Shown here: positions 16,692 through 27,963 of the stretch, in pieces
Position numbering within the stretch: position 1 is the first letter of the stretch
Layout: each line of letters starts with the position of its first letter
Origin: Aquificaceae bacterium
Lineage (GTDB): Bacteria > Aquificota > Aquificia > Aquificales > Aquificaceae
Assembly (NCBI GenBank): GCA_037924335.1
Contig: JAXSMZ010000005.1
Span: 1 to 64,000 of the forward strand
DNA: 64,000 nucleotides
Reading direction: 5' to 3'
Made by a program: the position numbers and the translations under genes
The notes under the pieces: generated by a model
Database searches by the model: none
Seen by the model: only the letters and a program-made list of their open reading frames with translations
Told to the model about the DNA's origin: nothing

Positions 16692-17963
16692 CTAAAAGGT
16701 AAGTCCAATTCTGGAGAGCTTCCTTTCGAGCAAAGCTTTAGCTCTCGAGCGTACTACTGGATACCTATGGTTTGCCAGTATCCTTAGAGTCTCCAAAGCT
16801 TCAGGATGGGACATCTTTATCAAAGCATCAGCCAATGCCATGAGTACAATAGGGTCGGCCTCCCTTCTGACCATGTGCTCAAGGTGAGGTAAAGCCATTG
16901 CAAGATCTTTTTTACCAATTGTATGTATGACGTTTAATCTCATCTCTCTTATGGGATGTTCTAAAGCCATGATGAGTTTGTACTCGTATGGCATGTTATG
17001 AAACTCGTTAAGGTTGTATCCACAGTTTGGACAAACCACATCTTTTTGAGATATAACACTCCAGCATGCTGGACAGAAGTATGTAATGGGCAATTGGTCA
17101 TCCGCTCTTAGAATCCTTAGCTTGCTGTCTTCCTTACCGTAGTCTTCTGGGTTTATAAAATGGAAAGACTTTATAATCTCCTTAGCTGCGTAAACTTCAA
17201 AGAGTGGTGCCTTTTCATCAAAGGAATCTACAAACAAAACCTTATCACCCAAATACACTTTGTATCCATAATCGTTCAGGGATACGCTAACTAGGAACAA
17301 GAAAGCGTCAGAATGTGCATTGGAGAATTTCCTTGCAAACTTTTCAGTTTCTTCCACAGTATGCAAAGTACCTATAAGTTTCAAATTGGAAAGAAGAAGA
17401 CTCAGCACGATAGGGTTAAGTTCGTACAAGTCAAAAAGACAGGAATCTCCTGTAAGGCTTGTAAAAAGCTCTTCAAAAGCTTCGCTGCCTTTTTTATCCT
17501 TAAGCCTTGCATCTACAATAAGCCCCCCTTGTAAGAAAACATACCCTACTTCCCTCTTTATCCTGTTCTCTATTCTAATATAACCAGTTGTTTCAAAGTC
17601 TCTCAGTTTTCTGAAAAATTCCAAAAGGTTGAAGCCTAAACTCTCCATGTTTATCCATACTGTTTTCTGTCTCGATAGGGGAAGCCTTAGGTTTTCTTCC
17701 AGGTTGAAGAAGTGTATGAGTAAGTTCTCCGTAGTTCTGTAAAAGCTAAACATATCAAAATCTTCCCTTAGATTTCCTATAAGCCTACCCTCGAGTATAG
17801 GTTCCACATGTGTACTGTTCAACGATTGGAAAATATAAATACCCGATCGCATAGAAGAGCTATGTATTTCATGTATCCATGTTATATTGACTACTTCTCT
17901 GTTTAGCGGTCCAAGGGTAGGCTTTTCCCCTTTAATTAGGTAAAAGAGCTTTTCTCCCATCAA
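16692..17963 (-). CDS. Multidomain protein: DUF4388/PATAN-like, Zn-ribbon, HEAT repeats
   Basis: TGYIRIEN...GYVFLQGGLIVDA segment, CPACW-x9-CPNCG, C-terminal HEAT-like helical repeats. Confidence 0.65.
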   Translation of the reverse strand: MMGEKLFYLIKGEKPTLGPLNREVVNITWIHEIHSSSMRSGIYIFQSLNSTHVEPILEGRLIGNLREDFDMFSFYRTTENLLIHFFNLEENLRLPLSRQKTVWINMESLGFNLLEFFRKLRDFETTGYIRIENRIKREVGYVFLQGGLIVDARLKDKKGSEAFEELFTSLTGDSCLFDLYELNPIVLSLLLSNLKLIGTLHTVEETEKFARKFSNAHSDAFLFLVSVSLNDYGYKVYLGDKVLFVDSFDEKAPLFEVYAAKEIIKSFHFINPEDYGKEDSKLRILRADDQLPITYFCPACWSVISQKDVVCPNCGYNLNEFHNMPYEYKLIMALEHPIREMRLNVIHTIGKKDLAMALPHLEHMVRREADPIVLMALADALIKMSHPEALETLRILANHRYPVVRSRAKALLERKLSRIGLTF

Positions 17964-18462
17964 TGGCTACCTTCAGGGCTTCTTTGAAAGTATCAATTAC
18001 ACCTATACCTTCTTTTGCCACTGCCGGAACTAAAGTGTACATGTTGAAAAATCTCTCTACCTCCTCAAAGGGTATTGGATTCTTTGAGTCCCTTTTGTTT
18101 GCCTGCACTACTATGGGAATCTTTAAGTTTCTTATTTCCTCAAAGGCTTCTAAGTTCTCACGAAGGCTTCTTGAAGAATCTAATACAAAAACAATAGCAT
18201 CCACGTGACCAAAGAACCATGGCCTTATTGTGGAGAACCTTTTCTGCCCTGGCGTTGTGAACAAGGATACAAAAAGCTCATCATTGTTCGTCTTTACCCT
18301 AAGCTTTAGCACGAGAACATCCAGGTAAACTGTTCTTCCTTCCTCAGTTTGCTGATGGAATCTGTCATAAATGTGGTCGCTAAACATTTCTTTGAGTTTT
18401 TCCAAGTTTGTTGTTTTACCCGCCATGCCAAGCCCATGGTAGAGTATTCGCAGCTCTTTCAT
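17932..18462 (-). CDS. mglA: MglA-like small GTPase
   Basis: GLGMAGKTTNL, RTVYLD switch I, TTPGQ, NKRD. Confidence 0.85.
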   Translation of the reverse strand: MKELRILYHGLGMAGKTTNLEKLKEMFSDHIYDRFHQQTEEGRTVYLDVLVLKLRVKTNNDELFVSLFTTPGQKRFSTIRPWFFGHVDAIVFVLDSSRSLRENLEAFEEIRNLKIPIVVQANKRDSKNPIPFEEVERFFNMYTLVPAVAKEGIGVIDTFKEALKVAIDGRKALLPN

Positions 18463-18911
18463 ATTGCGATATCCTCAAGCCTTATGGTAAGGCTCTCTTT
18501 CCCCCTTGAAACGGCTTTGTCAAGGGTTGAGGATATACTATGAGCAAGCTTTTCCATAAAAAGCCTTACGCTGCCCAAAGGTGTTTTGTTGGAGAAAAAG
18601 GTAAACAGCAGGAATTGGTGTTGGGTTATGATAAGATACACGCTTTTTGTGGTGCCAGATACAAAAAGGTGCCTTCCACGGTCTATAAAATTATCTAGAT
18701 AATCAAGCGCACCGTTGACTGCCGCCGATATAACAGAGCTTCTCAAGGCAAAGGGTTTTACTGTGTCCAACTGTGGTGCAAAGGTTACAACTCTTCCACC
18801 AGCATCCGAGAGAACAACAAGTTCCACGCTTAAGTTTCTCGCAAAATTTTCAAGGCACTTGCTTAGCTCCTCTATTTCCTCTTGAAGAAACTTGTAAGAT
18901 ACAACATCCAT
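18459..18911 (-). CDS. mglB: Roadblock/LC7 protein (MglB-like)
   Basis: VVLSDAGGRVV, TPLGSVRL; overlaps mglA start; GGAGGAGG RBS. Confidence 0.8.
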   Translation of the reverse strand: MDVVSYKFLQEEIEELSKCLENFARNLSVELVVLSDAGGRVVTFAPQLDTVKPFALRSSVISAAVNGALDYLDNFIDRGRHLFVSGTTKSVYLIITQHQFLLFTFFSNKTPLGSVRLFMEKLAHSISSTLDKAVSRGKESLTIRLEDIAI

Positions 18912-18946
18912 CCTTCTACCTCCTCCTTACAATTTACCTTAAAACT

Positions 18947-18963
18947 ATTAAGAATCTGTTAAG
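18947..18963 (-). promoter_or_regulatory. CTTAAC-N5-CTTAAT direct-repeat box upstream of mglB
   Basis: Minus strand CTTAACagattCTTAAT, 10 bp, then TAAATT. Confidence 0.6.
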
Positions 18964-19139: not shown

Positions 19140-19156
19140 CTTAACCAAATCTTAAC
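19140..19156 (+). promoter_or_regulatory. CTTAAC-N5-CTTAAC direct-repeat box upstream of fez-like operon
   Basis: CTTAACcaaatCTTAAC 23 bp before first ORF. Confidence 0.6.
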
Positions 19157-19179
19157 AGTAGGCTCTTTAAATATATAAA

Positions 19180-19554
19180 GTGATGATTGAATATGTGTCC
19201 AAGAGGGAAGAAGAGGTAAGACTACTCTTTAGCACAAAGGAGGGGAGGGACCTCTTTTCCAATGCCATACGAAAAATAAATGGGGTCATAAGCGTTGATT
19301 ACAAACAGAGCACAAAGGCTGTTACCGTCAAGTACAGAAAGGACACTCCAGCAAGTCTAATTTTGGAACACATAGAGCCTAAAAGGCTCGATAGGTTGGA
19401 TAGGACAGATGTTCACTTCTATATTTTTCCCTTTTTAAAACACCCTGCTGTTAAGCTCGCCTTCAGCATGCTTATGCTAGGTAGCATATCTGGTATTGTG
19501 GTTTTTGGTGTTTGTTCTCTTTTCCTTGTTCCTTACTTAAAAACAAAGCTTTAG
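19180..19554 (+). CDS. HMA-like domain membrane protein with GxxxG (FezC-like)
   Basis: INGVISVDYKQSTKAVTVKY HMA-like fold without CxxC; C-terminal TM LGSISG. Confidence 0.6.
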   Translation: MMIEYVSKREEEVRLLFSTKEGRDLFSNAIRKINGVISVDYKQSTKAVTVKYRKDTPASLILEHIEPKRLDRLDRTDVHFYIFPFLKHPAVKLAFSMLMLGSISGIVVFGVCSLFLVPYLKTKL

Positions 19555-19564
19555 GAGGTGTTAG

Positions 19565-19873
19565 ATGTTTAACATACCACTCAGGATTGGTGGATGCTTA
19601 TCCACTAACATGATGTTTTACGGTGTCGGTACTCTTGCAGGATTGGTAGTGATCAACAAGCTATTAAGGGATTCAAAGCCCTTTCTCGTTGCCGCTGCAA
19701 AAGAAACCATAGCCTTCCAACAATGGGTATCTGGTAATTTGGAGGAGAGTAAAGAGTTTTGGGAAGATGTGTTCTCTGAGGCAAGGCACGCATACAGAAT
19801 GGAGGTGGAGAAAAAGCTTCAGGTTCTTCAAAAACAACAAGAGATACTTCAGAAAATAAAGGAAAAGCTATAA
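19565..19873 (+). CDS. Small GxxxG membrane/coiled-coil protein (FezA/DUF5132-like)
   Basis: GVGTLAG TM, KPFLVAAAKE, EFWEDVFSEAR; AGGAGG RBS. Confidence 0.6.
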   Translation: MFNIPLRIGGCLSTNMMFYGVGTLAGLVVINKLLRDSKPFLVAAAKETIAFQQWVSGNLEESKEFWEDVFSEARHAYRMEVEKKLQVLQKQQEILQKIKEKL

Positions 19874-19879
19874 AGGAGG

Positions 19880-20089
19880 ATGAATATGAACGGAATAGGA
19901 TCTATAGTTGGTAGGATCTTCTGTTCCGGACCTTTCAGTTTTGCCTTGGGTTTTGGTGTAGGGGTTTTTGCCCTGTACCTTTTGGAGAGAGCCAAGGAGA
20001 AAAAAAGGTTTGAAGAAACTTACAAGGAAACGGAAGCTCTTTTGAAAGCCTTAGAGGTAAAGGTAAAAGAAGAAGGAAAGGAAGCCTGA
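19880..20089 (+). CDS. Small GxxxG membrane protein
   Basis: FALGFGVGVFALY TM then charged helix; AAGGAGG RBS. Confidence 0.6.
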   Translation: MNMNGIGSIVGRIFCSGPFSFALGFGVGVFALYLLERAKEKKRFEETYKETEALLKALEVKVKEEGKEA

Positions 20090-20090
20090 T

Positions 20091-22163
20091 ATGCCCATAC
20101 CGTATAAGATAAAGAGGCTCTCTTACGGAAAGATAACAGTAAGCTCTTATCTTTTAAGACATCCAGTCCTTGGAAAAGATACTGTGGAAGAATACTTTCT
20201 TAGGTTTAATGGCGTAATAAAAGTCAGGTGCAGGAAGAGCAGCGGGAGCCTTACCTTGGAGTACAACCCAGACACTTTCAACCTTATAGAATTTATCAAC
20301 TTCTTGGAAAGTAGCTCCCTTGAACTCTTTCTTGAGGAGCTCTCCAAGCGCAGTGTAGAAAAAAAGCAGGCTAAAAGAACAAGCTGGCTATGGTTTACAT
20401 TAGCCGGGTTTGTACCCTATCTTTTCAGGTCTTTTTTCCCAAATCCATTGCTGAGTATCATGACCCTCTCCCTCTCTTTCCCTGTTTTTAAAAAGGCTTT
20501 TAGCTCGCTAAAGGCAAGAAGGCTTGACGTTCATTTCCTTGACTCTGCTGCCATACTCACATCTACCTTTTCAGGAAACCCTCTGACGTCACATATCATG
20601 ATCTTCCTTCTCTCAGTTGGTGATTACATGGAGGATAAAATAGAGAAAAAAGCGTACAGTCAGATAGAAAAACTGCTAAGCTACGAAGAGGACCATGCAT
20701 GGCTAATGGTAGATAACGGGCAAGGCGTTAAAGTGAGAGCCAACGAGCTCAAAAGAGGAGACCTTATAGTGGTTTATGCTAGTGAGAAGATATCTGCAGA
20801 TGGAAGGGTTGTGGAGGGGGAGGCTTTGGTAAATCAAGCATCCTTAACTGGTGAATCCAACCCAGTCCTTAAAAAATTTGGAGATAAGGTATATGCAGGA
20901 ACTTTTGTGGAGGATGGTAAGCTGTACGTTAGGGTGGAAGAGGTGGGAAATGAGACGGTGCTTGCCAAGATAGTCAACATAATTGAAAACAGCGTCAAAG
21001 AGCCCATAAGCATACAGAAAAAGGCTGAATACCTAGCCAACAGGTTTGTTACTCCAACACTCCTTTTGGGTGGCCTTTCTTACCTTACAAGTGGGCAAAC
21101 GAACAGGCTAACAGCCACTCTTATAATGGACTATCACACAGGTATACACCTTGCAACACCACTTAGTGTTATGTTCCATATAGCTCAAGCGGCAAATTTA
21201 GGGATCCTCATAAAAAGCGGCAGTAAACTGGAAGCTCTATCGAGAGTGGATACTGTGGTAATAGACAAAACCGGAACCCTTACAGTAGGACAACCAAGGG
21301 TTACTGACATAGTTGGTCTTGGTATGGAAAAGGATGATGTTCTGCTCTATGGAGCATCCCTTGAACAAAGGATAACCCACCCTGTAGCGAAAGCTCTTGT
21401 AATGCTTGCTAAAGAGAGAGGCATGGAACTCATTCCAAGAGAAAACTCTAAGTACCACATAGGGCTTGGTATAGAGGGATACCTAAATGGTGTACCTTTT
21501 ATGCTTGGTAGCACAAGGTTCATGCAGAAGAAGAGGATAAGGATAAGCCAGGAGATAAAAGACCTTGTTGACAGGTTTCATTCAGAATCCAAGTCTGTAC
21601 TTTACTTGGTAAGAGAAAGGCATGTCATTGGATTGTTTGCCTTTACTGACCCTCTAAGGGAAGAGGCAGTGGATGTGGTAAAAGAACTGGAAAGAAGGGG
21701 TAAAAGAGTGGTTTTATGCACTGGGGACAATGAGGGAGCAGCCAAATACATAGCCATGAAGCTTGGAATGGATGAGTACTATGCCAGAGCTTTTCCAGAA
21801 GAGAAGGCTAAGATAGTTCAGAAAATGAGGGGGGAGGGAAGGGTTGTGGCTTTTGTTGGAGACGGTGTTAACGATTCACCAGCCTTATCTTCAGCAGATG
21901 TAGGCATATCCCTAAGGGGTGGGACAGACATAGCTATAGAGCTTGCGGATGTAGTTATAGGTGATAGCTTATGGTACATTCTTGACGCTGTAGATATAGC
22001 CGATAAAGCCATGAGCAAACTGAGGAGAATATATCAGGTCAATGCCTTTACAAACACTGTTGGGCTTTTAGGCTCTTTGTTGGGTCTTTTCAGACCAAGC
22101 ATTTCCACTTTAATAAACAATGGTACCACTGTGTTCTTAGGTTTTTATGCCATAAAAAAGTAG
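20091..22163 (+). CDS. Heavy-metal P1B-type ATPase, P1B-6/FezB-like
   Basis: TGES, DKTGTLT, HP, GDGVNDSPALS; TM4 DYHTG instead of CPx; Cys-less HMA-like N-terminus. Confidence 0.88.
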   Translation: MPIPYKIKRLSYGKITVSSYLLRHPVLGKDTVEEYFLRFNGVIKVRCRKSSGSLTLEYNPDTFNLIEFINFLESSSLELFLEELSKRSVEKKQAKRTSWLWFTLAGFVPYLFRSFFPNPLLSIMTLSLSFPVFKKAFSSLKARRLDVHFLDSAAILTSTFSGNPLTSHIMIFLLSVGDYMEDKIEKKAYSQIEKLLSYEEDHAWLMVDNGQGVKVRANELKRGDLIVVYASEKISADGRVVEGEALVNQASLTGESNPVLKKFGDKVYAGTFVEDGKLYVRVEEVGNETVLAKIVNIIENSVKEPISIQKKAEYLANRFVTPTLLLGGLSYLTSGQTNRLTATLIMDYHTGIHLATPLSVMFHIAQAANLGILIKSGSKLEALSRVDTVVIDKTGTLTVGQPRVTDIVGLGMEKDDVLLYGASLEQRITHPVAKALVMLAKERGMELIPRENSKYHIGLGIEGYLNGVPFMLGSTRFMQKKRIRISQEIKDLVDRFHSESKSVLYLVRERHVIGLFAFTDPLREEAVDVVKELERRGKRVVLCTGDNEGAAKYIAMKLGMDEYYARAFPEEKAKIVQKMRGEGRVVAFVGDGVNDSPALSSADVGISLRGGTDIAIELADVVIGDSLWYILDAVDIADKAMSKLRRIYQVNAFTNTVGLLGSLLGLFRPSISTLINNGTTVFLGFYAIKK

Positions 22164-22179
22164 AAAGGAGGTAAAAAAA

Positions 22180-22275
22180 ATGGAAGAGAAGAACATTTAC
22201 CAGGAGCTTGAAGAACTTAAAAAGAAGATAGGTAGCACAGAAGAGAAAAGCATAAAAGCCATGAGAGAAAAATAG
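22180..22275 (+). CDS. 31-aa charged coiled-coil peptide (not in ORF track)
   Basis: AAGGAGGT RBS, ATG 22180, MEEKNIYQELEELKKKIGSTEEKSIKAMREK*. Confidence 0.55.
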   Translation: MEEKNIYQELEELKKKIGSTEEKSIKAMREK

Positions 22276-22292
22276 GAGGAAAAGCCCGAAAA

Positions 22293-22550
22293 ATGAAGTT
22301 TGTAAGAACAAGGAGCGGAAGATTTCTCAACGTTCTTCATATGATATCCCTTTCTGTGGAAGAGACCAGGATAGAGATAGATGGAAAAAAGAGGTTGGTT
22401 TATAAGCTCATAGCGCATATGAGCCAGCCTCTTCTTCCCGCCGTCCTTGGCATATATTCTACAGAAGATAAAGCCTACGCTATACTAGAAGACACAGTTA
22501 GAAGACTTTCTGGAGATGAAAGGATAGTAAGCGTTGAGAGTGAGTTCTGA
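22293..22550 (+). CDS. Hypothetical protein
   Basis: AGGAGG RBS upstream, in operon order. Confidence 0.6.
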   Translation: MKFVRTRSGRFLNVLHMISLSVEETRIEIDGKKRLVYKLIAHMSQPLLPAVLGIYSTEDKAYAILEDTVRRLSGDERIVSVESEF

Positions 22551-22875
22551 AGACCTCCTTACAAACTTGAAAACCATTATCCACAGGATAAACTGCGAGC
22601 ATAAGAAGATACTTGAAAGGTTAGATAAGAATATGCTATTGATAGTCCATATGCCTGACAATAAGGAAGTCCACCTTTCCATAGACAGCGACGGTGTAAA
22701 GTATTTGGAAAAACCCGTGTGTGTTGAAAGCGTTGTAAAGATCGGTTACAGAGACCTCATGCGTCTTATCGATGATCCGTCCAAAGCTGTTAGATACCTG
22801 CTCCAAGGGAGGATCCTTATTAAGGGAGACCTAAGTCTGATAGAAAAGCTTATGAGTATTATAGGATCCTATTGA
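22534..22875 (+). CDS. SCP2 sterol/lipid-binding domain protein
   Basis: DLMRLI...AVRYLLQGRILIKGDLSL resembles SCP2 C-terminal motif. Confidence 0.7.
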   Translation: MRVSSEDLLTNLKTIIHRINCEHKKILERLDKNMLLIVHMPDNKEVHLSIDSDGVKYLEKPVCVESVVKIGYRDLMRLIDDPSKAVRYLLQGRILIKGDLSLIEKLMSIIGSY

Positions 22876-23065
22876 TAGCCCTAGTCATCAGGTTTTCAAG
22901 TATGCCACCGATCACAAAGGATTCTATAAGTATAGTCTTGTCCTTCCCCGTTAGGAAAGTATCCCTTTCTCTTTTCCTTACCCTGTCTCCCTTCTTTAAG
23001 TATCTCCTGTACTCTTCAATGCGTCTTTCTACACTCTCCATCAGCTCATCTATTCTCTTTTCCAT
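22859..23065 (-). CDS. Small basic hypothetical protein
   Basis: ATG ORF with its own box plus -10 promoter directly upstream. Confidence 0.55.
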   Translation of the reverse strand: MEKRIDELMESVERRIEEYRRYLKKGDRVRKRERDTFLTGKDKTILIESFVIGGILENLMTRAINRIL

Positions 23066-23089
23066 AGACTGATATGTTAAAGCTTCAAT

Positions 23090-23106
23090 GTTAAGATTTC
23101 ATTAAG
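23090..23106 (-). promoter_or_regulatory. CTTAAT-N5-CTTAAC direct-repeat box
   Basis: Minus strand CTTAATgaaatCTTAAC, 10 bp, TAACAT, 8 bp, ATG 23065. Confidence 0.55.
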
Positions 23107-23495
23107 AAGATGCACATGTTTTCTTTGTGAGGAAAGTCGTACATGACATTTTGATAAAAAGATTCTATCTTTCCAAAGCACAGCCAGCAAAAAGCATGCT
23201 CCATAGGTCTTAGCCCCGAATGTTCTATGAGACTTCTAAAGTAACAGTTGGAGACTATAACTTTATTGTCTTTTTTTGATAGCTCATCATGTACAGGTTC
23301 TATCTTCTTAGCCAACGCCCTGAGTATGGGAGCAACGACTCCTACGCCAAACATCTCTTGTAGTTTTTGTACAGTGTAGAAGATCTTTTCTCTTTCATCT
23401 TTGCCCTCAAATTCCTTTGCAACCCTTTCGACTATGAGGCTTAAACCTCTTCCAGCATAGATTTCTAACTCTTTTATAAATTCCTCCAATCTCAT
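23091..23495 (-). CDS. Hypothetical Cys-containing protein (V4R/ligand-binding-like)
   Basis: NCYF...FCWLCFG...CIF Cys pattern. Confidence 0.55.
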   Translation of the reverse strand: MRLEEFIKELEIYAGRGLSLIVERVAKEFEGKDEREKIFYTVQKLQEMFGVGVVAPILRALAKKIEPVHDELSKKDNKVIVSNCYFRSLIEHSGLRPMEHAFCWLCFGKIESFYQNVMYDFPHKENMCIFLMKS

Positions 23496-23932
23496 ACCTC
23501 TATGTTTGGGGAGTATTTTACAACTACCACTCGCATTACAGATAGAACAAGAAGGATAAGACTGAAAGATACAGCCCTTTCCAGATTTAGCTTTCCTGAA
23601 TACATGATCATTATCATCTCTCTTAGCATAAAGGAGATAGAAGCGTCTACAAGAAAGGTAAGCTTGACTCTTCTATACTCAAAGATGCTCAAAATTGCTC
23701 TTAAAAGCTCATATAGAATGATTACCTCAAGTACCTTTACAGTTACTTCCTTTATCACATACTGTGATGTAATGTTTCCTGAAGCTAAAAATTCTTTAAA
23801 AGCCAACAGAAGGCTAAAAGCGATCAAAAAGTACATGAATATTTCTACAGAGAGATGGAAGAAGCGTGAAGGTCTAATTTTATCTGCATACCTGTTCACC
23901 CACAAGACTGTAAACCTCCAATAACTTTTCAA
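23492..23932 (-). CDS. Phosphate-starvation-inducible PsiE family membrane protein (start uncertain)
   Basis: Four TM helices, IILYELLRAI..F, LVDASISFMLRE. Confidence 0.75.
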   Translation of the reverse strand: MKSYWRFTVLWVNRYADKIRPSRFFHLSVEIFMYFLIAFSLLLAFKEFLASGNITSQYVIKEVTVKVLEVIILYELLRAILSIFEYRRVKLTFLVDASISFMLREMIMIMYSGKLNLERAVSFSLILLVLSVMRVVVVKYSPNIEV

Positions 23933-24995
23933 AACACCTCTCCCATGAAAAGTTTTCCCTTATATAAGAGCTTACTTTTTCCCTCATGAAGAAGCTTTGG
24001 GCATTTGCTGCCTTCACAAGAGCGTCGTAAAAGCTCTCTGTATTCGGCCTTTTTACCAAAAAGTCCTTAAAGGGTTGAGTTTCCAAACCTAGGTCCGGTG
24101 CCACAAGCAGACATCCACACGCCTGAGCTTCCAAAAAGGAAAGCCCATAGGTTTCCGATGTGGATGCGGATATGTAGACATCACAACTTGCGTAGATTTT
24201 GGAAAGATCCTCTTCCTTTTGTATGTAACCCAAATAACTAACGTTGGGGCGCTTTTGGGCAAACTTCTCAACCCTTCCCCTGAGCGGTCCATCTCCAACT
24301 ATCAAAAAATGAAAAAAGGCAGGGTCCATGATGTCTATTACCTCAAGAAGTATGTCTATCCTCTTCTCCGGTGAGAGTCTCCCAGCGTATACTACCTTGA
24401 AGTTGTAATCCTTGATGCCAAGCATTCTGCCAAGGTAGTGGTCTCTTTTGGACGTGTTAAACACATTCGTATCAACTCCCAAGTTCACAGTTTGAACCTT
24501 TTCAAACCCGTTTTGTCTCAAAAACTCCTCCTGTCTTGTGGATGGTGTTATGATAAGGTTGGCAAGTGAAAGCCTTTTGGTGAGAGTAAAGTCAATGAGT
24601 TTCTCCTTTAGCTTTTCTGGAATGGGTAATAATGAAGCATCGGTTCTCACATCAGCATGGTAAAAGACTATGATCTTATACCTTTCTGACCTGAAGTGTG
24701 TTATGGGAATATAAGTTCCACCAAGCTCCACCACGTTAGGCTTTTCCATGTTAAGTATTTCTTTTATGTCTTTGAAGCTTCCAAAAAACCTGTAGCCACC
24801 GCTCATGGGTATGGGGAAGGATGGAATCTGATAAACCTTTGTGGACCCAATCCTGTAAACCTTTCTCTCTTTACCAGGTATGATAAGAACATGCTCTATG
24901 TCTTTACCATCCAAATACTTGACCTTCTCTAAGAGGTATCTTCTTATGCCACCGCTTTTACTGTGAAAGTATGGAGTTATATCAACGAGTTTCAT
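23880..24995 (-). CDS. GT4 family glycosyltransferase
   Basis: SGGIRRYL, YAGRLSPEK, ETYGLSFLEAQACG. Confidence 0.9.
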   Translation of the reverse strand: MKLVDITPYFHSKSGGIRRYLLEKVKYLDGKDIEHVLIIPGKERKVYRIGSTKVYQIPSFPIPMSGGYRFFGSFKDIKEILNMEKPNVVELGGTYIPITHFRSERYKIIVFYHADVRTDASLLPIPEKLKEKLIDFTLTKRLSLANLIITPSTRQEEFLRQNGFEKVQTVNLGVDTNVFNTSKRDHYLGRMLGIKDYNFKVVYAGRLSPEKRIDILLEVIDIMDPAFFHFLIVGDGPLRGRVEKFAQKRPNVSYLGYIQKEEDLSKIYASCDVYISASTSETYGLSFLEAQACGCLLVAPDLGLETQPFKDFLVKRPNTESFYDALVKAANAQSFFMREKVSSYIRENFSWERCFEKLLEVYSLVGEQVCR

Positions 24996-27228
24996 AGACA
25001 AGCCTCCCAAAGCCAGCTATGGCGTTCATATAGTCTATGTAAGTTTTTCTCATATCAAGCTCTTGAGCTTTCTTAAAAGCTTCAAAAGATATCCTTCTTC
25101 GCAAGTTATCGTCGAGGAAAAGTAGGGATACCTTGTTTACAAACTCCTCAGGCTTTGTGGCTATAAGACCGTTTACACCATCTTGAATGTGCTCATGAGC
25201 TCCACCCTTTGAACTCACTATAACGGGAAGCCCGCTTGCCATTGCTTCGAGAACTACCTGTGCGTATGTGTCTGTTTCTGATGGAAATAAGAATATGTGG
25301 GAGCTAGCGTAGGCCTTGGCTAACTCCTCTCCCTTCATGTAACCCACAAAATGTACGTTTTTTGGCTTTTTCCTTTCTAGCTCTTCCCTGTAAGGACCGT
25401 CACCTACTATCACAAAGTGTTCTTCTGGGAAAGCTCTTGCAACGTACATAAAGCTGTCCAATCCCTTCTCCTTTGCAACCCTCCCAACGTAAAGAATGAC
25501 CTTTGAATCCCTCCTTATACCGAGCCTGTTACCCCAAAAGTTCTCTTCCCTCTTGTAAGGGGAGAAGAGCTCAGCATCAACGCCTCGTCTAAAAAGGCTG
25601 AGTTTAGAGTAGGAGACACCTTTGTTTGAAAGCAGTTTTCTGTAATGTTCCGAAGGCACAAAACATCTGTCGCAGCTGTTCATAAGAAGTTCAAAGGCCT
25701 TCCATAGAAACTCCTCTAAGTTCTCGTCCCTTGTGTAACTCTTTGCATAGCTTGGAACGTCCGTATGGAAGGTAAAGGTTACCCTGAGGTTTAAGAGTTT
25801 CCCGGCAAGGAATGCCATGAGGCCTAGGGGTCCGGGTGATGCTATATGCAGGTTGGTAAAACCCTTTTTTTCTATAAAATCTACAAGCTCCAAGAAGGAA
25901 GGGACACCCATCCTAAGCTCTTCATAAAAAGGCACTGGTATGCGGAAGTTTGCTCTAAGGGATACAAGGTTTCCATCCTTGAACCCCTCCTCTGTACATA
26001 TGACAAAGGTATAAGGCATATCTTCCTCCTGAGCTATCTTTCTCATGATTTTAGCTGTTCGTGCAACACCGTTGATCTCCTCGTAAGTATCTGTAAAGTA
26101 GGCAACCTTCACAGGCTTTGCCGTATCTATGCCAAACTCCGCAGAAAGGGACCTTATCTTCTCCTCTTCTCTCCTTTGGGCGTGTTTTAAAAAGGCGGGC
26201 AGGATGTGGAGGATAAAAGATAGAACCACTTCTCCCACCCCTTGGAGGGATTGCCTTTGTACAAACCTTCTCAGAGAAAAGAAGGGTAAGTTATTTAGGA
26301 TGTTTTTCAAAAGTTCTTGCCTTTCACCGTTTACACCTAGGGCGTACTTTAGCATCATACCCACAGCAGGGTTGTCAGAGTACATGAAAATATAGTCAAG
26401 AAAAGGTCTAATTTCAAAAGGAATGGTATATCTGCTCTGTATGTGGTCGTATCCCACTTTAGCGACTATGTTGAGAATCCGTTCGTAGCCAAGCTTTTCT
26501 GTACCCGTATCAGTCTTCCCTTCCCAAAGTCCCATAAGGAAGCTCTGTACATCCTTTGCATCTTTTACAACAGTCCATGTTCTCCCCACATCCATTCCAC
26601 CATGGTCATCGGAACCTGCGGTAAAGCTTATCTTTGGTCTGCTCCTCAAAGTTCTTATCTTGTATTTTTCCTCCAACTGATTTATCTTCTCCCATCCATC
26701 GTACATGCGTGCTATTGACTCTTCTATGTGGCTTACACCGTTTCCCCTCGTCCCATTTATCACCTCCCAGTTATCAAAAAGCAGAATCATCTTTTCTGTA
26801 AGTCTCTTTGTAATCTTTGTCCCCTGTACTGAATAAAGTGGATGGGCAAGAGTATGGGGTATCTTGTACTGCTTTAGATAGCTTACAAACTCGTAAACGT
26901 TGCCCCTTAGTTTGGAAAGCTCCTCATGGTCCTTTTGGCTTATCCCGTAAGCTATAACGTGTACCATTGCAAGCTCTTCTGGAAACTCTACTGTGTACTC
27001 GCAGCTTATAAAAACATCTGGCAGATGAGCGATTTCCAGCACACCCTCTATGGTGTTGTGGTCTGTTATAGTCACAAAATCCATACCCCTCTCTTTCAGC
27101 CTCTTGTATATATCCATAGGATCGGCATAGCTTTCTGGACAACCTATTAGCTTGCTAAACCATCCACCCGGCAGGTTGGAAGCTTTGGAATGAAGGTGCA
27201 AGTCTGCTCTTGCTAAAAACTTCCTCAT
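24982..27228 (-). CDS. PHP-domain + GT4 glycosyltransferase fusion
   Basis: DLHLHS, TITDHN, AHP, AGSDDH; NGVART, YVGRVAKEK, DTYAQVVLEAMASG. Confidence 0.9.
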   Translation of the reverse strand: MRKFLARADLHLHSKASNLPGGWFSKLIGCPESYADPMDIYKRLKERGMDFVTITDHNTIEGVLEIAHLPDVFISCEYTVEFPEELAMVHVIAYGISQKDHEELSKLRGNVYEFVSYLKQYKIPHTLAHPLYSVQGTKITKRLTEKMILLFDNWEVINGTRGNGVSHIEESIARMYDGWEKINQLEEKYKIRTLRSRPKISFTAGSDDHGGMDVGRTWTVVKDAKDVQSFLMGLWEGKTDTGTEKLGYERILNIVAKVGYDHIQSRYTIPFEIRPFLDYIFMYSDNPAVGMMLKYALGVNGERQELLKNILNNLPFFSLRRFVQRQSLQGVGEVVLSFILHILPAFLKHAQRREEEKIRSLSAEFGIDTAKPVKVAYFTDTYEEINGVARTAKIMRKIAQEEDMPYTFVICTEEGFKDGNLVSLRANFRIPVPFYEELRMGVPSFLELVDFIEKKGFTNLHIASPGPLGLMAFLAGKLLNLRVTFTFHTDVPSYAKSYTRDENLEEFLWKAFELLMNSCDRCFVPSEHYRKLLSNKGVSYSKLSLFRRGVDAELFSPYKREENFWGNRLGIRRDSKVILYVGRVAKEKGLDSFMYVARAFPEEHFVIVGDGPYREELERKKPKNVHFVGYMKGEELAKAYASSHIFLFPSETDTYAQVVLEAMASGLPVIVSSKGGAHEHIQDGVNGLIATKPEEFVNKVSLLFLDDNLRRRISFEAFKKAQELDMRKTYIDYMNAIAGFGRLVYETR

Positions 27229-27901
27229 AGCTTATTAACCTCCTTTGCTTTTTTGCTTTTGTGAGTATAAGCCTCCACAGCTTTACCTTTCTTGGGTCTT
27301 TGAAGTCTCTTGCATGAAGAGCAAAGCGAACAAGCTGCTTTCTCTCCAGAAGGCGTGAATAGAAAGCAACAAAGAACAAGCTCATGAAGGAAAGGATCTT
27401 TCTGTTGCTAAAGGTGATGCTATAAGATGGTATAACATCATCCGTTAAAAGGTCCTTGAAATAATTTCTGTATGCTACTCCCACAAACCCAAAGGAAAAC
27501 AGGACATCTTCTAGAAACTTGTTTCCTAACCAGGCAGGCGGAACAAAAAACTTCACTTCAATGTTCAAGCTGTGCATAACCTCAAGTGACTTTTCAACCT
27601 TTCTGTAGGTTTCTAAAAGGCTAGCCTTTTCAAACTCCCCCTCCCCATAGGTCCACAGAATGTTTGATAAGCTCTTTCTTCCTTTGTGGCTGTAACCGTG
27701 CAAAACTATCTCTCTCTTTAAAGACCTAAGGAGTTCTGCAAAGCTGTCCCTCTTGTAAAGGGGGAAAGCATCCCAAAAGTTGGGCACAACGAGGAGAGAG
27801 TACTTCTCTATCCTCAATCTCTCCAAAAGCTCAATGGCATAAACTACTTCATCGTAGTAAAAAGGGCTAACATCGTGTACTTCTATCAATCCCAGCTTCA
27901 T
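27155..27901 (-). CDS. DUF2334 / polysaccharide deacetylase-like protein
   Basis: EVHDVSP, LHGYSH, EGEF, FVPPAW, RFALH. Confidence 0.8.
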   Translation of the reverse strand: MKLGLIEVHDVSPFYYDEVVYAIELLERLRIEKYSLLVVPNFWDAFPLYKRDSFAELLRSLKREIVLHGYSHKGRKSLSNILWTYGEGEFEKASLLETYRKVEKSLEVMHSLNIEVKFFVPPAWLGNKFLEDVLFSFGFVGVAYRNYFKDLLTDDVIPSYSITFSNRKILSFMSLFFVAFYSRLLERKQLVRFALHARDFKDPRKVKLWRLILTKAKKQRRLISYEEVFSKSRLAPSFQSFQPAGWMV

Positions 27902-27924: not shown

Positions 27925-27963
27925 CTTAATTTTTTATTAAGATTCAGTTAAGAAAGTGTTAAC
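27925..27963 (-). promoter_or_regulatory. Four TTAA repeats at 11-bp period (Pho-box-like array)
   Basis: TTAA at 27926, 27937, 27948, 27959; minus strand GTTAAC-N5-CTTAAC-N5-CTTAAT-N5-ATTAAG, 10 bp, TATCCT, 7 bp, ATG. Confidence 0.7.

Follow-up and report, generated by a model that had tools for sequence, protein, structure and literature searches.

A candidate phosphate-regulated, ferrosome-like gene cassette in an Aquificaceae bacterium

Known ferrosomes respond to iron, and the fez genes have previously been expressed in E. coli. According to the available text of their description, fez clusters code for the P1B-6 ATPase FezB, the GxxxG proteins FezA, FezE and FezG, and FezC and FezD, along with a second pump, FezH, whose motifs are called 'distinct' (bioRxiv 10.1101/2020.01.10.902569). 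Scaffolded pumps are also found elsewhere: DUF1490 PacL proteins, which are related to DUF6110, gather the P1B-6-like pump CtpC into foci at the plasma membrane, where it effluxes Zn, as far as the accessible text states (PMC9374683). In cyanobacteria that form intracellular CaCO3, genes for DUF5132 and CoBaHMA (HMA_2) proteins adjoin the calcyanin gene ccyA, again judging from the available portion of the source (bioRxiv 10.1101/2024.07.07.602159). A preprint (2025.12.07.689555) proposes that CoBaHMA domains bind anionic lipids.

A cassette combining features of these systems lies in the window, by which we mean the whole 64,000-nt stretch of Aquificaceae DNA that was analysed.

A compact cassette around a P1B-type ATPase

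A preliminary description made from the sequence placed the cassette at 19180..22875. The unit is wider, as it also includes a promoter repeat and a convergent gene for a 68-aa protein:

19140..19157, + strand: CTTAAC-n5-CTTAAC, an 11-bp direct repeat resembling a Pho box, located at -35 in the promoter of the cassette
19183..19554 (start 19180 or 19183), + strand: HMA_2/CoBaHMA-like gene with a membrane segment (weak HMA/HMA_2 matches; 16/16 loci)
19565..19873, + strand: gene for a 102-aa membrane anchor with coiled coil (probable remote DUF5132/DUF6110/DUF1490 relative)
19880..20089, + strand: gene for a 69-aa GxxxG membrane protein with a coiled-coil tail and an invariant Cys (16/16 loci)
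20091..22163, + strand: P1B-6-like ATPase of the DxxTG clade (TIGR01525, motifs, trees, AlphaFold model)
22180..22296, + strand: broken remnant of a ~90-aa gene, containing a 31-aa ORF at 22180-22275 (alignment to relative G006)
22293..22550, + strand: gene for an 85-aa soluble protein, tentatively of PH-like fold (14/16 loci, structure model)
22534..22875, + strand: gene for an SCP2 lipid-binding domain protein (PF02036 over cut-off)
22859..23065, - strand: convergent gene for a 68-aa helical protein (12/16 loci); a Pho-like box of its own lies at 23089-23106

The seven ORFs on the + strand are separated by gaps of 10, 6, 1 and 16 bp in the first half of the cassette, and the 85-aa and SCP2 genes overlap by 17 bp. 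This agrees with the tightly packed operon that had been reported, and the fez-like layout noted at the same time, with an HMA-type protein, GxxxG proteins and a pump in one operon, is likewise present. A marker gene for the cassette occurs in 39/151 genomes of the phylum; the cassette of one carrier, G005, is frameshifted. Conservation was counted over 16 fetched loci of relatives, and the small proteins proved to be conserved beside the pump, with the HMA-like and 69-aa genes accompanying it in every locus.

The predicted ATPase passes TIGR01525 (464 bits versus a cut-off of 346), retains intact TGES, DKTGT, HP, TGDN and GDGVND motifs, and has a P1B fold in its AlphaFold model (pLDDT 86.5). 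The earlier statement that it lacks the CPx motif is correct. The CPx position in TM4 is occupied by D347-Y-H-T-G (347-351), TM5 contributes N655, and TM6 reads N676-N-G-T-T, which together leave the membrane site free of Cys. There is no CxxC in the N-terminus, and GKITV stands where many relatives have the R-rich motif GRLRL or GRIRL. Among 120 listed homologues, the TM4 motif is DYHTG in 80, DFHTG in 10 and DYSCA in 5, and D347, N655 and N677 are invariant across 125 aligned pumps. None of the five P-type ATPases of the host genome is a DYSCA pump.

The identification of this pump as FezB is ruled out. Both defining motifs fail: the FezB TM4 motif D[Y/F]SCA is replaced by DYHTG, and the TM6 motif HNxxT by NNGTT at 676, a change of His to Asn that leaves TM5 N655 and the spacing as they are in FezB. 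Two quick trees, whose rows include no characterised FezB and one of which omits 2 long rows, place the pump in a separate DxxTG clade (SH-aLRT 99) that is sister to 9 FezB-motif rows (SH-aLRT 91-92; values of 93-94 were also obtained for the sister relationship to FezB-motif pumps). The affinity that had been predicted held in part: FezB-motif pumps are the sister group and CopA/CopB are distant, but the pump does not fall within the FezB group. CtpC-like pumps branch outside the combined FezB and DxxTG group, and the DxxTG clade also takes in DFGTG pumps of cyanobacteria whose neighbours are DUF5132 and HMA2 proteins. The membrane helices have a hydrophobicity of 1.28 in the pump clade, 1.26 in FezB-motif pumps and 1.98 in CopB. 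A PDB sequence search returned 22 matches, none of them a structure of FezB or CtpC. The gene set points to an unclassified P1B clade with a sulfur-free membrane site. The DxxTG clade is a wide one, with pumps from cyanobacteria, Deinococcus and soil bacteria.

Each of the three small membrane subunits carries one near-invariant Cys. The first subunit had been described as a Cys-less HMA protein with GxxxG. Its GxxxG is indeed kept in 32/33 aligned family members, but so is a membrane-segment Cys (also 32/33), and the HMA match is below the Pfam cut-off (E 0.12). The family HMM matches HMA2 proteins of fez clusters only at E 0.1-0.8. The subunit may have a FezC-like role. The GxxxG motifs reported for the other two proteins are retained as well, in 27/34 aligned members of the 102-aa family and, as GFGVG, in 33/33 of the 69-aa family, whose Cys is equally constant (33/33). 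Fez clusters of Vibrio and Arcobacter encode GxxxG proteins that the 69-aa protein matches only weakly (E 0.02, small set). The 102-aa protein itself has no Pfam match, including none to PF07371; its nearest Atlas clusters are DUF6110 (0.90), DUF5132 (0.88) and DUF1490 (0.87). Its family HMM matches proteins in 11/80 DYGTG-pump loci (best E 1.5e-5), the top six of which pass DUF5132, and this supports the assignment as a remote DUF5132-type relative.

Downstream of the pump, the 31-aa ORF that had been taken for a peptide gene was rejected as a genuine small protein. It is a remnant of a conserved ~90-aa gene: alignment to relative G006 shows that two deletions have removed 21 and 135 bp in frame and that a stop codon comes early. 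Homologues of this soluble, coiled-coil/amphipathic family are present in 14/16 loci. Runs X5 and X7 yielded contigs with the same broken form, which makes an assembly artefact an unlikely cause. With its coat-like gene broken, the local copy of the cassette may be partly degraded. The model of the 85-aa protein (pLDDT 92.8) gives VIA Z values of 5-6 to PH/PTB/FERM-F3 domains, a range typical of common arrangements; Foldseek with this model returned nothing at E<=0.001, and its Atlas neighbours are unnamed clusters, mostly viral. On the basis of the model, the protein is tentatively considered PH-like. The SCP2 domain previously assigned to the last ORF is confirmed by PF02036 (23.8 bits versus a cut-off of 21.3, with relatives at 31-32 bits). 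An SCP2 gene occurs in 34/151 phylum genomes, 30 of which have the 102-aa gene. The protein may supply lipid to a compartment, as had been suggested; its gene was not found in 9/39 carrier genomes, among them all seven of genus g11.

Pho-like boxes and phosphate genes

The repeat at the start of the cassette overlaps the predicted -35 hexamer. When a box matrix derived from 13 relatives was scanned over the whole genome, this box was the top site at 28.0 bits, and 17/18 held-out relatives score at least 20.9 bits at the same place. Only five sites genome-wide reach at least 19 bits, one at pstS and four in the cassette region; three shuffles gave 0, 0 and 1. The box of pstS (pstSCAB) scores 27.1 bits, and that of the 68-aa gene, which has an equivalent in relatives, scores 23.8 bits. 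The repeat also precedes pstS in 4/5 relatives (pstS of G055 has no box) and a gene for a phosphate porin (Porin_O_P). It heads the cassette in most relatives and is absent from the cassette start in 2/16 loci (L069, L080). In sharing its 11-bp direct repeat with pstS and further phosphate genes, the cassette has a feature of a Pho regulon. The host genome contains phoU and a PhoB candidate (G000:C9:35320) that scores under the family cut-offs. In the wider DYGTG clade, the mean best Pho-box match over 47 upstream regions is 9.6/14, compared with 8.5 in shuffles, a weak enrichment, and two regions reach 13.

A literature search found no paper on an Aquificota Pho regulon. The SphR/PhoB Pho boxes of cyanobacteria are similar in their 8-bp CTTAACC-type unit, 11-bp period and location ahead of pstS; the SphR box is given as CTTAACCT with a 3-bp linker. 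In the accessible part of that source SphR is said to require at least three repeats (PMC1906773), whereas most sites here have two. Because the cassette repeat also lies ahead of pstS and the phosphate porin gene, and matches the cyanobacterial Pho box, the sequences argue strongly for phosphate-starvation control of the cassette by a PhoB-type regulator.

Similar boxes accompany the flanking genes:

16692..18963, - strand: divergent mglB-like, mglA-like small GTPase and HEAT/Zn-ribbon genes, with a fourth Pho-like box at 18946-18963 (24.0 bits)
23492-23932, - strand: PsiE (Pfam), in the neighbour operon 23091..27901, which also includes a 134-aa protein
23880-25010, - strand: GT4 (Pfam), neighbour operon
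24982-27228, - strand: GT4 fusion protein (Pfam), neighbour operon
27155-27901, - strand: DUF2334 deacetylase (Pfam), neighbour operon
27935-27952: Pho-like box of the neighbour operon (23.5 bits)

The best NCBIfam matches of the GT4/DUF2334 operon, which are sub-threshold, are to a GlcNAc-phosphatidylglycerol synthase and deacetylase. It is a candidate lipid head-group glycosylation operon that is probably co-regulated with the cassette through its box. Genes like mglB, mglA and the HEAT gene also occur near the cassette in L065, L069, L072 and L080, and other genes near it in relatives code for PhoD, PhoX, a phosphoesterase, an OlsB-like acyltransferase, PhoU and a pyrophosphatase. Although ppk1 and ppk2 over cut-off are absent from 38/39 carriers, the absence of ppk1 is non-discriminating because the gene is missing lineage-wide (131/151 genomes).

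Possible functions of the cassette

The reading we favour, while giving it somewhat less than an even chance, is that the cassette builds a Pho-induced, ferrosome-like compartment that loads a hard divalent metal with phosphate. A PhoB-type regulator would, as the shared boxes strongly suggest, activate the cassette along with pstSCAB, the phosphate porin and the lipid head-group enzymes. If they act as Fez and PacL proteins do, the three small GxxxG subunits would hold the pump together in a patch of curved membrane, and the amphipathic, PH-like and SCP2 proteins would serve as accessory coat and lipid factors. The pump, whose catalytic motifs are intact, would transport Fe2+ or Mn2+, or possibly Ca2+, through an O/N-only site of Asp, His, Thr and Asn. 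More speculatively, the ion would be stored with phosphate in a membrane-bounded lumen, and filling would take place upon phosphate return, mirroring ferrosomes that fill upon iron return after iron starvation. In favour of this reading are the shared boxes, the phosphate-related genes near the cassette in relatives, the sister position and weak helix hydrophobicity of the pump, the fez-like layout, a CDF transporter gene in or beside the cassette in L068, L070 and L071, and the missing ppk genes of carriers. Against it, both FezB motifs fail, the PhoB candidate is under the cut-offs, a few loci have no box, and PacL/CtpC is a case of a scaffolded pump that acts in plain efflux. A starving cell could also ill afford to tie up phosphate in mineral, so that filling would have to wait for re-supply. 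A more specific version, in which a Pho-induced sister of the ferrosome stores metal-phosphate in its lipid-bounded lumen on phosphate return and replaces polyphosphate in hot-spring Aquificales that lack ppk1/ppk2, is unlikely but deserves consideration. In this version the near-invariant Cys of each small subunit may provide, in trans, sulfur ligands missing from the pump. If such an organelle exists, the wide DxxTG clade would amount to a P1B subclass, as yet without a name, whose members have compartments of their own. A ferrosome-like gene set would have shifted from iron to phosphate physiology, and a compartment, if built, would be a second, phosphate-triggered lipid-bounded mineral store in bacteria and a candidate answer to phosphate buffering in Aquificales free of polyphosphate kinase.

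The scaffolds might instead cluster the pump in the cell membrane as a Pho-induced efflux platform, exporting metal that nucleotides, RNA and lipids release as these phosphate ligands run down. There is a precedent in the PacL/CtpC pair, which acts as a plain efflux platform according to the available text (PMC9374683), the 102-aa protein resembles the DUF1490/DUF6110 families, and CDF transporter genes lie within or adjoining the cassette in 3/16 loci (L068, L070, L071). However, a PacL system has a single scaffold and a pump with CPC, CtpC-like pumps fall outside the FezB and DxxTG group, and efflux leaves the SCP2, PH-like and amphipathic genes unexplained; we regard it as a rather improbable function. 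PhoX and PhoD phosphatases need metal cofactors, and a pump that sends Fe, Ca or Mn to the periplasm could load such enzymes. A gene for PhoD, PhoX or a phosphoesterase is found within a few kb in L068, L070, L071 and L072, and 30/39 carriers, counted by hand, have PhoD or PhoX, but 9/39 have neither, the host genome has no match to either, and PhoX genomes such as G001, G015, G017 and G036 have no match to the marker gene, all of which makes this supply line very unlikely.

A role in handling lipids while phospholipids are replaced or modified, with the pump acting like a flippase or with a body akin to a lipid droplet that has SCP2 as carrier and an amphipathic coat, would fit the SCP2 gene, the co-regulated operon with its GpgS/GpgD-like best matches, and the anionic-lipid binding proposed for CoBaHMA domains. 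DUF2334 is also present in 38/39 carriers, the lone exception being G005 with its frameshifted cassette, but 18 genomes have DUF2334 without the marker gene, and the co-occurrence is explicable by common habitat and kinship. The idea of a missing flippase was discarded, as GpgF-family flippases (PF03706) are nearly universal (148/151 genomes) and leave no gap to fill, and the invariant polar residues D347, N655 and N677 are those expected of ion binding. A lipid function is therefore judged quite unlikely. The preliminary description had proposed a divergent ferrosome-type system. Taken as an iron-storing ferrosome of the usual kind, controlled by iron and with a divergent FezB, this version is consistent with the sister pump clade, the fez-like layout and the TonB-dependent receptors with ExbBD that adjoin 5/16 loci; FezH, with its 'distinct' motifs, might be a further point of contact. 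Against it, the FezB motifs fail, the TonB receptor genes of L070 and L075 are themselves preceded by a Pho-like box, the cassette loci yielded no recognisable gene for FeoA or a ferritin-like protein, and the host's feoB and one of its ferritin-like genes lack the box (2.9 and -3.4 bits). Matches to a generic Fur consensus reached 12/19 ahead of the cassette and likewise only 12/19 ahead of feoB, so that this comparison had no working positive control; gene context and promoter point to phosphate. With a promoter repeat that is that of pstS and the phosphate porin, iron storage is not supported as the purpose of the cassette, and this version appears highly improbable.

Comparison with known systems

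The ccyA neighbourhoods share the same two partner families with the cassette in a biomineral-linked setting. They differ in that calcyanin and a Ca/H exchanger were not seen in the cassette loci, and the available portion of their description names no P1B pump. The PacL-CtpC/CtpG/CtpV effluxosomes of mycobacteria likewise place a single-pass helical scaffold of DUF1490/DUF6110/DUF5132 type beside a P1B-6-like pump. In the accessible text of both sources, the pumps that partner PacL retain a CPC or APC motif, have one scaffold each and serve in the export of Zn, Cd or Cu (PMC9374683, PMC13460109), whereas the scaffold in the window has no His-rich tail and its pump belongs to a different clade. 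Membership in the PacL-Ctp effluxosomes was rejected on the lack of a PF07371 match and of CPx, and on the position of CtpC-like rows outside the pump clade.

The fez clusters, in their available description, resemble the cassette as compact operons of a pump, an HMA-domain membrane protein and small GxxxG proteins. FezB-motif pumps form the sister clade, and a Cys-free N-terminal domain and equally weak helix hydrophobicity are shared; the D[Y/F]SCA/HNxxT motifs differ from DYHTG/NNGTT, and the R-rich motif is degraded in the window's pump. Ferrosomes have granules, whereas the cassette is known here from its genes, which add SCP2, PH-like and 68-aa members and a Pho-like promoter such as that at pstS. 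The order of an HMA protein, two GxxxG proteins and a pump nevertheless fits the six-gene fez operons, as far as these are described in the available text, better than the one-scaffold PacL pairs.

A conserved cassette around a distinct P1B pump

The seven tightly packed ORFs of the preliminary description (19180..22875, + strand) were recovered as described, and the last was confirmed as an SCP2 gene by a passing Pfam match. The 690-aa pump passes TIGR01525, retains all catalytic motifs and is predicted to fold as a P1B pump; the closest named relatives belong to Aquificaceae, at identities of 85% and about 64%. The preliminary reading of a divergent ferrosome-type system would imply a FezB-type P1B-6 ATPase, which this pump is not. 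FezB is defined, in the passages concerned, through D[Y/F]SCA and HNxxT (Grant and Komeili, bioRxiv 10.1101/2020.01.10.902569); the window pump carries DYHTG and NNGTT in register with these motifs, which rules out FezB identity. Among the 120 homologues listed, the TM4 motif was DYHTG in 80, DYGTG in 11, DFHTG in 10 and DYSCA in 5.

In two quick IQ-TREE analyses, the first on 61 rows and the second on the 59 left once two long outgroup rows were removed, the pump fell within a 15-row clade (SH-aLRT 98-99), nested in a 36-row DxxTG clade (SH-aLRT 99). The latter was sister to nine FezB-motif rows with joint support of 93-94 in trees lacking characterised FezB or FezH, and may itself be FezH or a group already in the published tree. 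CtpC-like, CopA and CopB rows lay outside the joint group. The anticipated separation from CopA and CopB thus held, as did kinship with FezB-motif pumps, but not membership among them. The metal site in the pump membrane has O/N donors only. On grounds of coordination chemistry, Fe2+, Mn2+ or Ca2+ suits such a site better than Cu+ or Cd2+ does, and we infer a pump substrate of this class. Other P1B-6-like variants occur on plasmids: DYACP (locus L103 4962-7073, Cereibacter, beside FeoA), DFICG (L108 1998-4112, Priestia) and DISCV (L107 4001-6121, Deinococcus, beside DUF6110).

Module orthologues of at least 40% identity were counted in 17 of 61 related genomes, a tally that takes in the window's own genome, one fragmented copy and one partial copy. 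Across the phylum, the 102-aa gene occurs in 39/151 genomes and 9/34 genera. In 16 larger loci hand-picked among these carriers, the small genes do stay beside the pump, the first three in all 16, those for the ~90-aa and the 85-aa protein in 14 each, SCP2 in 13 and a convergent 68-aa gene in 12. The supposed 31-aa peptide, however, is a broken gene. At this position relatives encode a soluble protein of 87-111 aa with coiled-coil and amphipathic character. Alignment with genome G006 shows that 21 bp and 135 bp are missing from the window copy, which stops prematurely. Contigs from runs X5 and X7 cross the deletion site in the same form, so the accessory gene is broken in this population; a more distant relative (run X8) retains the missing DNA.

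Several cassettes depart from this plan. One genus (L070 7131-10506, L071 6745-10139) has two HMA-like genes and a DYNTN pump, without an SCP2 or PH-like gene; CDF and OlsB-like genes come next, and kdp genes also lie downstream in L070. Family f3 (L067 5718-6251, L068 5796-6365, L072, L078) begins the operon with an extra 154-189-aa helical gene that has no Pfam match and is preceded by two to five tandem repeats. In L079 (7869-10744, genome G005), deletions and frameshifts disrupt the cassette behind an intact promoter box; G005 is the sole carrier without a DUF2334 gene.

A Pho-like promoter repeat

In the window and most relatives, the first cassette gene is preceded, at a distance of 40-45 bp, by an 11-bp direct repeat. 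The repeat unit corresponds to the SphR box CTTAACCT (3-bp linker), as presented in passages of PMC1906773. A matrix was built from 13 relatives; because its seed was picked out visually in the window and relatives, the window's own box is not an independent test. Five sites of at least 19 bits occur in the 1.53-Mb genome, where three block shuffles gave 0, 0 and 1, and there is no enrichment at 13 bits (21 sites vs 19-26).

Genes preceded by sites of at least 19 bits
19180..22875 (+), cassette (repeat at 19140..19157)
pstSCAB operon
divergent mglBA-like genes
22859..23065 (-), 68-aa gene
23091..27901 (-), DUF2334-GT4 operon

A gene for a phosphate-selective porin also has a series of repeats in front of it, though weaker ones (13-15 bits). 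In a scan of five relatives, four pstS genes had the box (17.6-26.6 bits) and that of G055 had no site. Of 18 held-out cassette loci, which are kin and not independent, 17 scored at least 20.9 bits and one 16.1; L069 and L080 have no site at the cassette start. The genome encodes phoU and a PhoB-like regulator, the latter below cut-off. In relatives, genes close to the cassette encode PhoD, PhoX, PhoU, pyrophosphatase, a phosphoesterase and an OlsB-like enzyme, as well as TonB receptors, two of which have the same box. This sequence evidence points to phosphate regulation, from which we infer PhoB control.

Two other boxes have neighbours of note. At 16692-18963 (-), MglB-like, MglA-like GTPase and HEAT/Zn-ribbon genes follow a strong box, and similar genes lie close to the cassette in four relatives, making this a candidate phosphate-controlled small-GTPase module. 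Between the Pho box and pstS (L087, G000:C1 about 188825-189053, -) is a 76-aa ORF with a signal-peptide-like start, possibly a porin remnant.

Gene co-occurrence across the phylum

DUF2334 genes occur in 56/151 genomes and 38/39 carriers, and PhoD or PhoX in 30/39 carriers. Of the polyphosphate kinase genes, ppk1 is found in 20/151 genomes and ppk2 exceeds its cut-off in 4/151. Among the sampled genomes, no ppk1 was detected in 72/72 of family f1 and 43/44 of f3, nor ppk2 over cut-off in either family. The only carrier with these kinase genes is G077, whose cassette is one of the two that start without a box. Kinship and habitat can explain all these patterns. Within the DUF2334-GT4 operon, a 748-aa GT4 protein (24982-27228, -) has an N-terminal region without a Pfam match at E<=1e-4, which we take to resemble a PHP-type metallophosphoesterase; the protein could couple head-group removal to glycosylation.

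Membrane partners and competing explanations

The 102-aa protein has no Pfam match; among 36 family members, weak E-value matches were to DUF5132 in three and DUF6110 in two, and nearby Atlas clusters are DUF6110, DUF5132 and DUF1490 (0.87-0.90). Each small membrane protein has a near-invariant single Cys (32/33, 34/34 and 33/33). The HMM of the 102-aa family matches proteins in 11 of the 80 metagenomic loci with a DYGTG pump; the top six matches pass DUF5132. These 80 loci (L122-L201) represent a widespread soil operon, with HMA_2 in 67, DUF5132 in 54, DUF445 in 27 and an EcsC-family gene frequently downstream of the pump; no publication on it was found in the literature searched.

DUF1490 PacL proteins, related to DUF6110, scaffold CtpC within efflux platforms (passages of PMC9374683), and genes for DUF5132 and CoBaHMA proteins are likewise found on either side of calcyanin (passages of bioRxiv 2024.07.07.602159). 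The partner kit is common to ferrosomes, effluxosomes and calcium-carbonate loci and therefore is no proof of an organelle alone. An efflux platform in the cell membrane is the likeliest rival, albeit an unlikely one. A lipid-handling role for the cassette, which has an SCP2 gene, seems quite unlikely; the best matches of the DUF2334 operon, all sub-threshold, are Pseudomonas enzymes that synthesise and deacetylate GlcNAc-phosphatidylglycerol, for which phosphate control is unmentioned in passages of PMC12713373. Phosphatase metallation is about as unlikely, and neither PhoD nor PhoX was found in the window's own genome. Least likely of these is an ordinary iron ferrosome. The genome's other P-type ATPases are CopA, CopB and two P2 pumps, with no DYSCA pump among them. 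The box matrix gives at most 10.6 bits at feoB, at a ferritin-like gene and at each of four fez-type clusters from other phyla. A generic Fur-box test lacked a working positive control.

The reading we tentatively prefer is that the pump and its scaffolding partners, putatively forming a complex and induced under Pho control, would build a ferrosome-like lumen and load into it a hard divalent metal kept with phosphate. The lumen and its mineral are speculative. Among the papers listed in our literature searches on ferrosomes, P1B-6 pumps and the Pho regulon, none dealt with a pump of the DxxTG type or with a fez-like operon under phosphate control. Loading is proposed by symmetry with ferrosomes, which fill upon iron re-supply (passages of bioRxiv 10.1101/2020.01.10.902569). 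The pump clade also has in common with FezB-motif pumps a weak membrane-helix hydrophobicity, taken as the mean of the six most hydrophobic membrane windows: 1.28 (15 rows) vs 1.26 (8 rows), compared with 1.71 for CopA/CtpC (3 rows) and 1.98 for CopB (8 rows).
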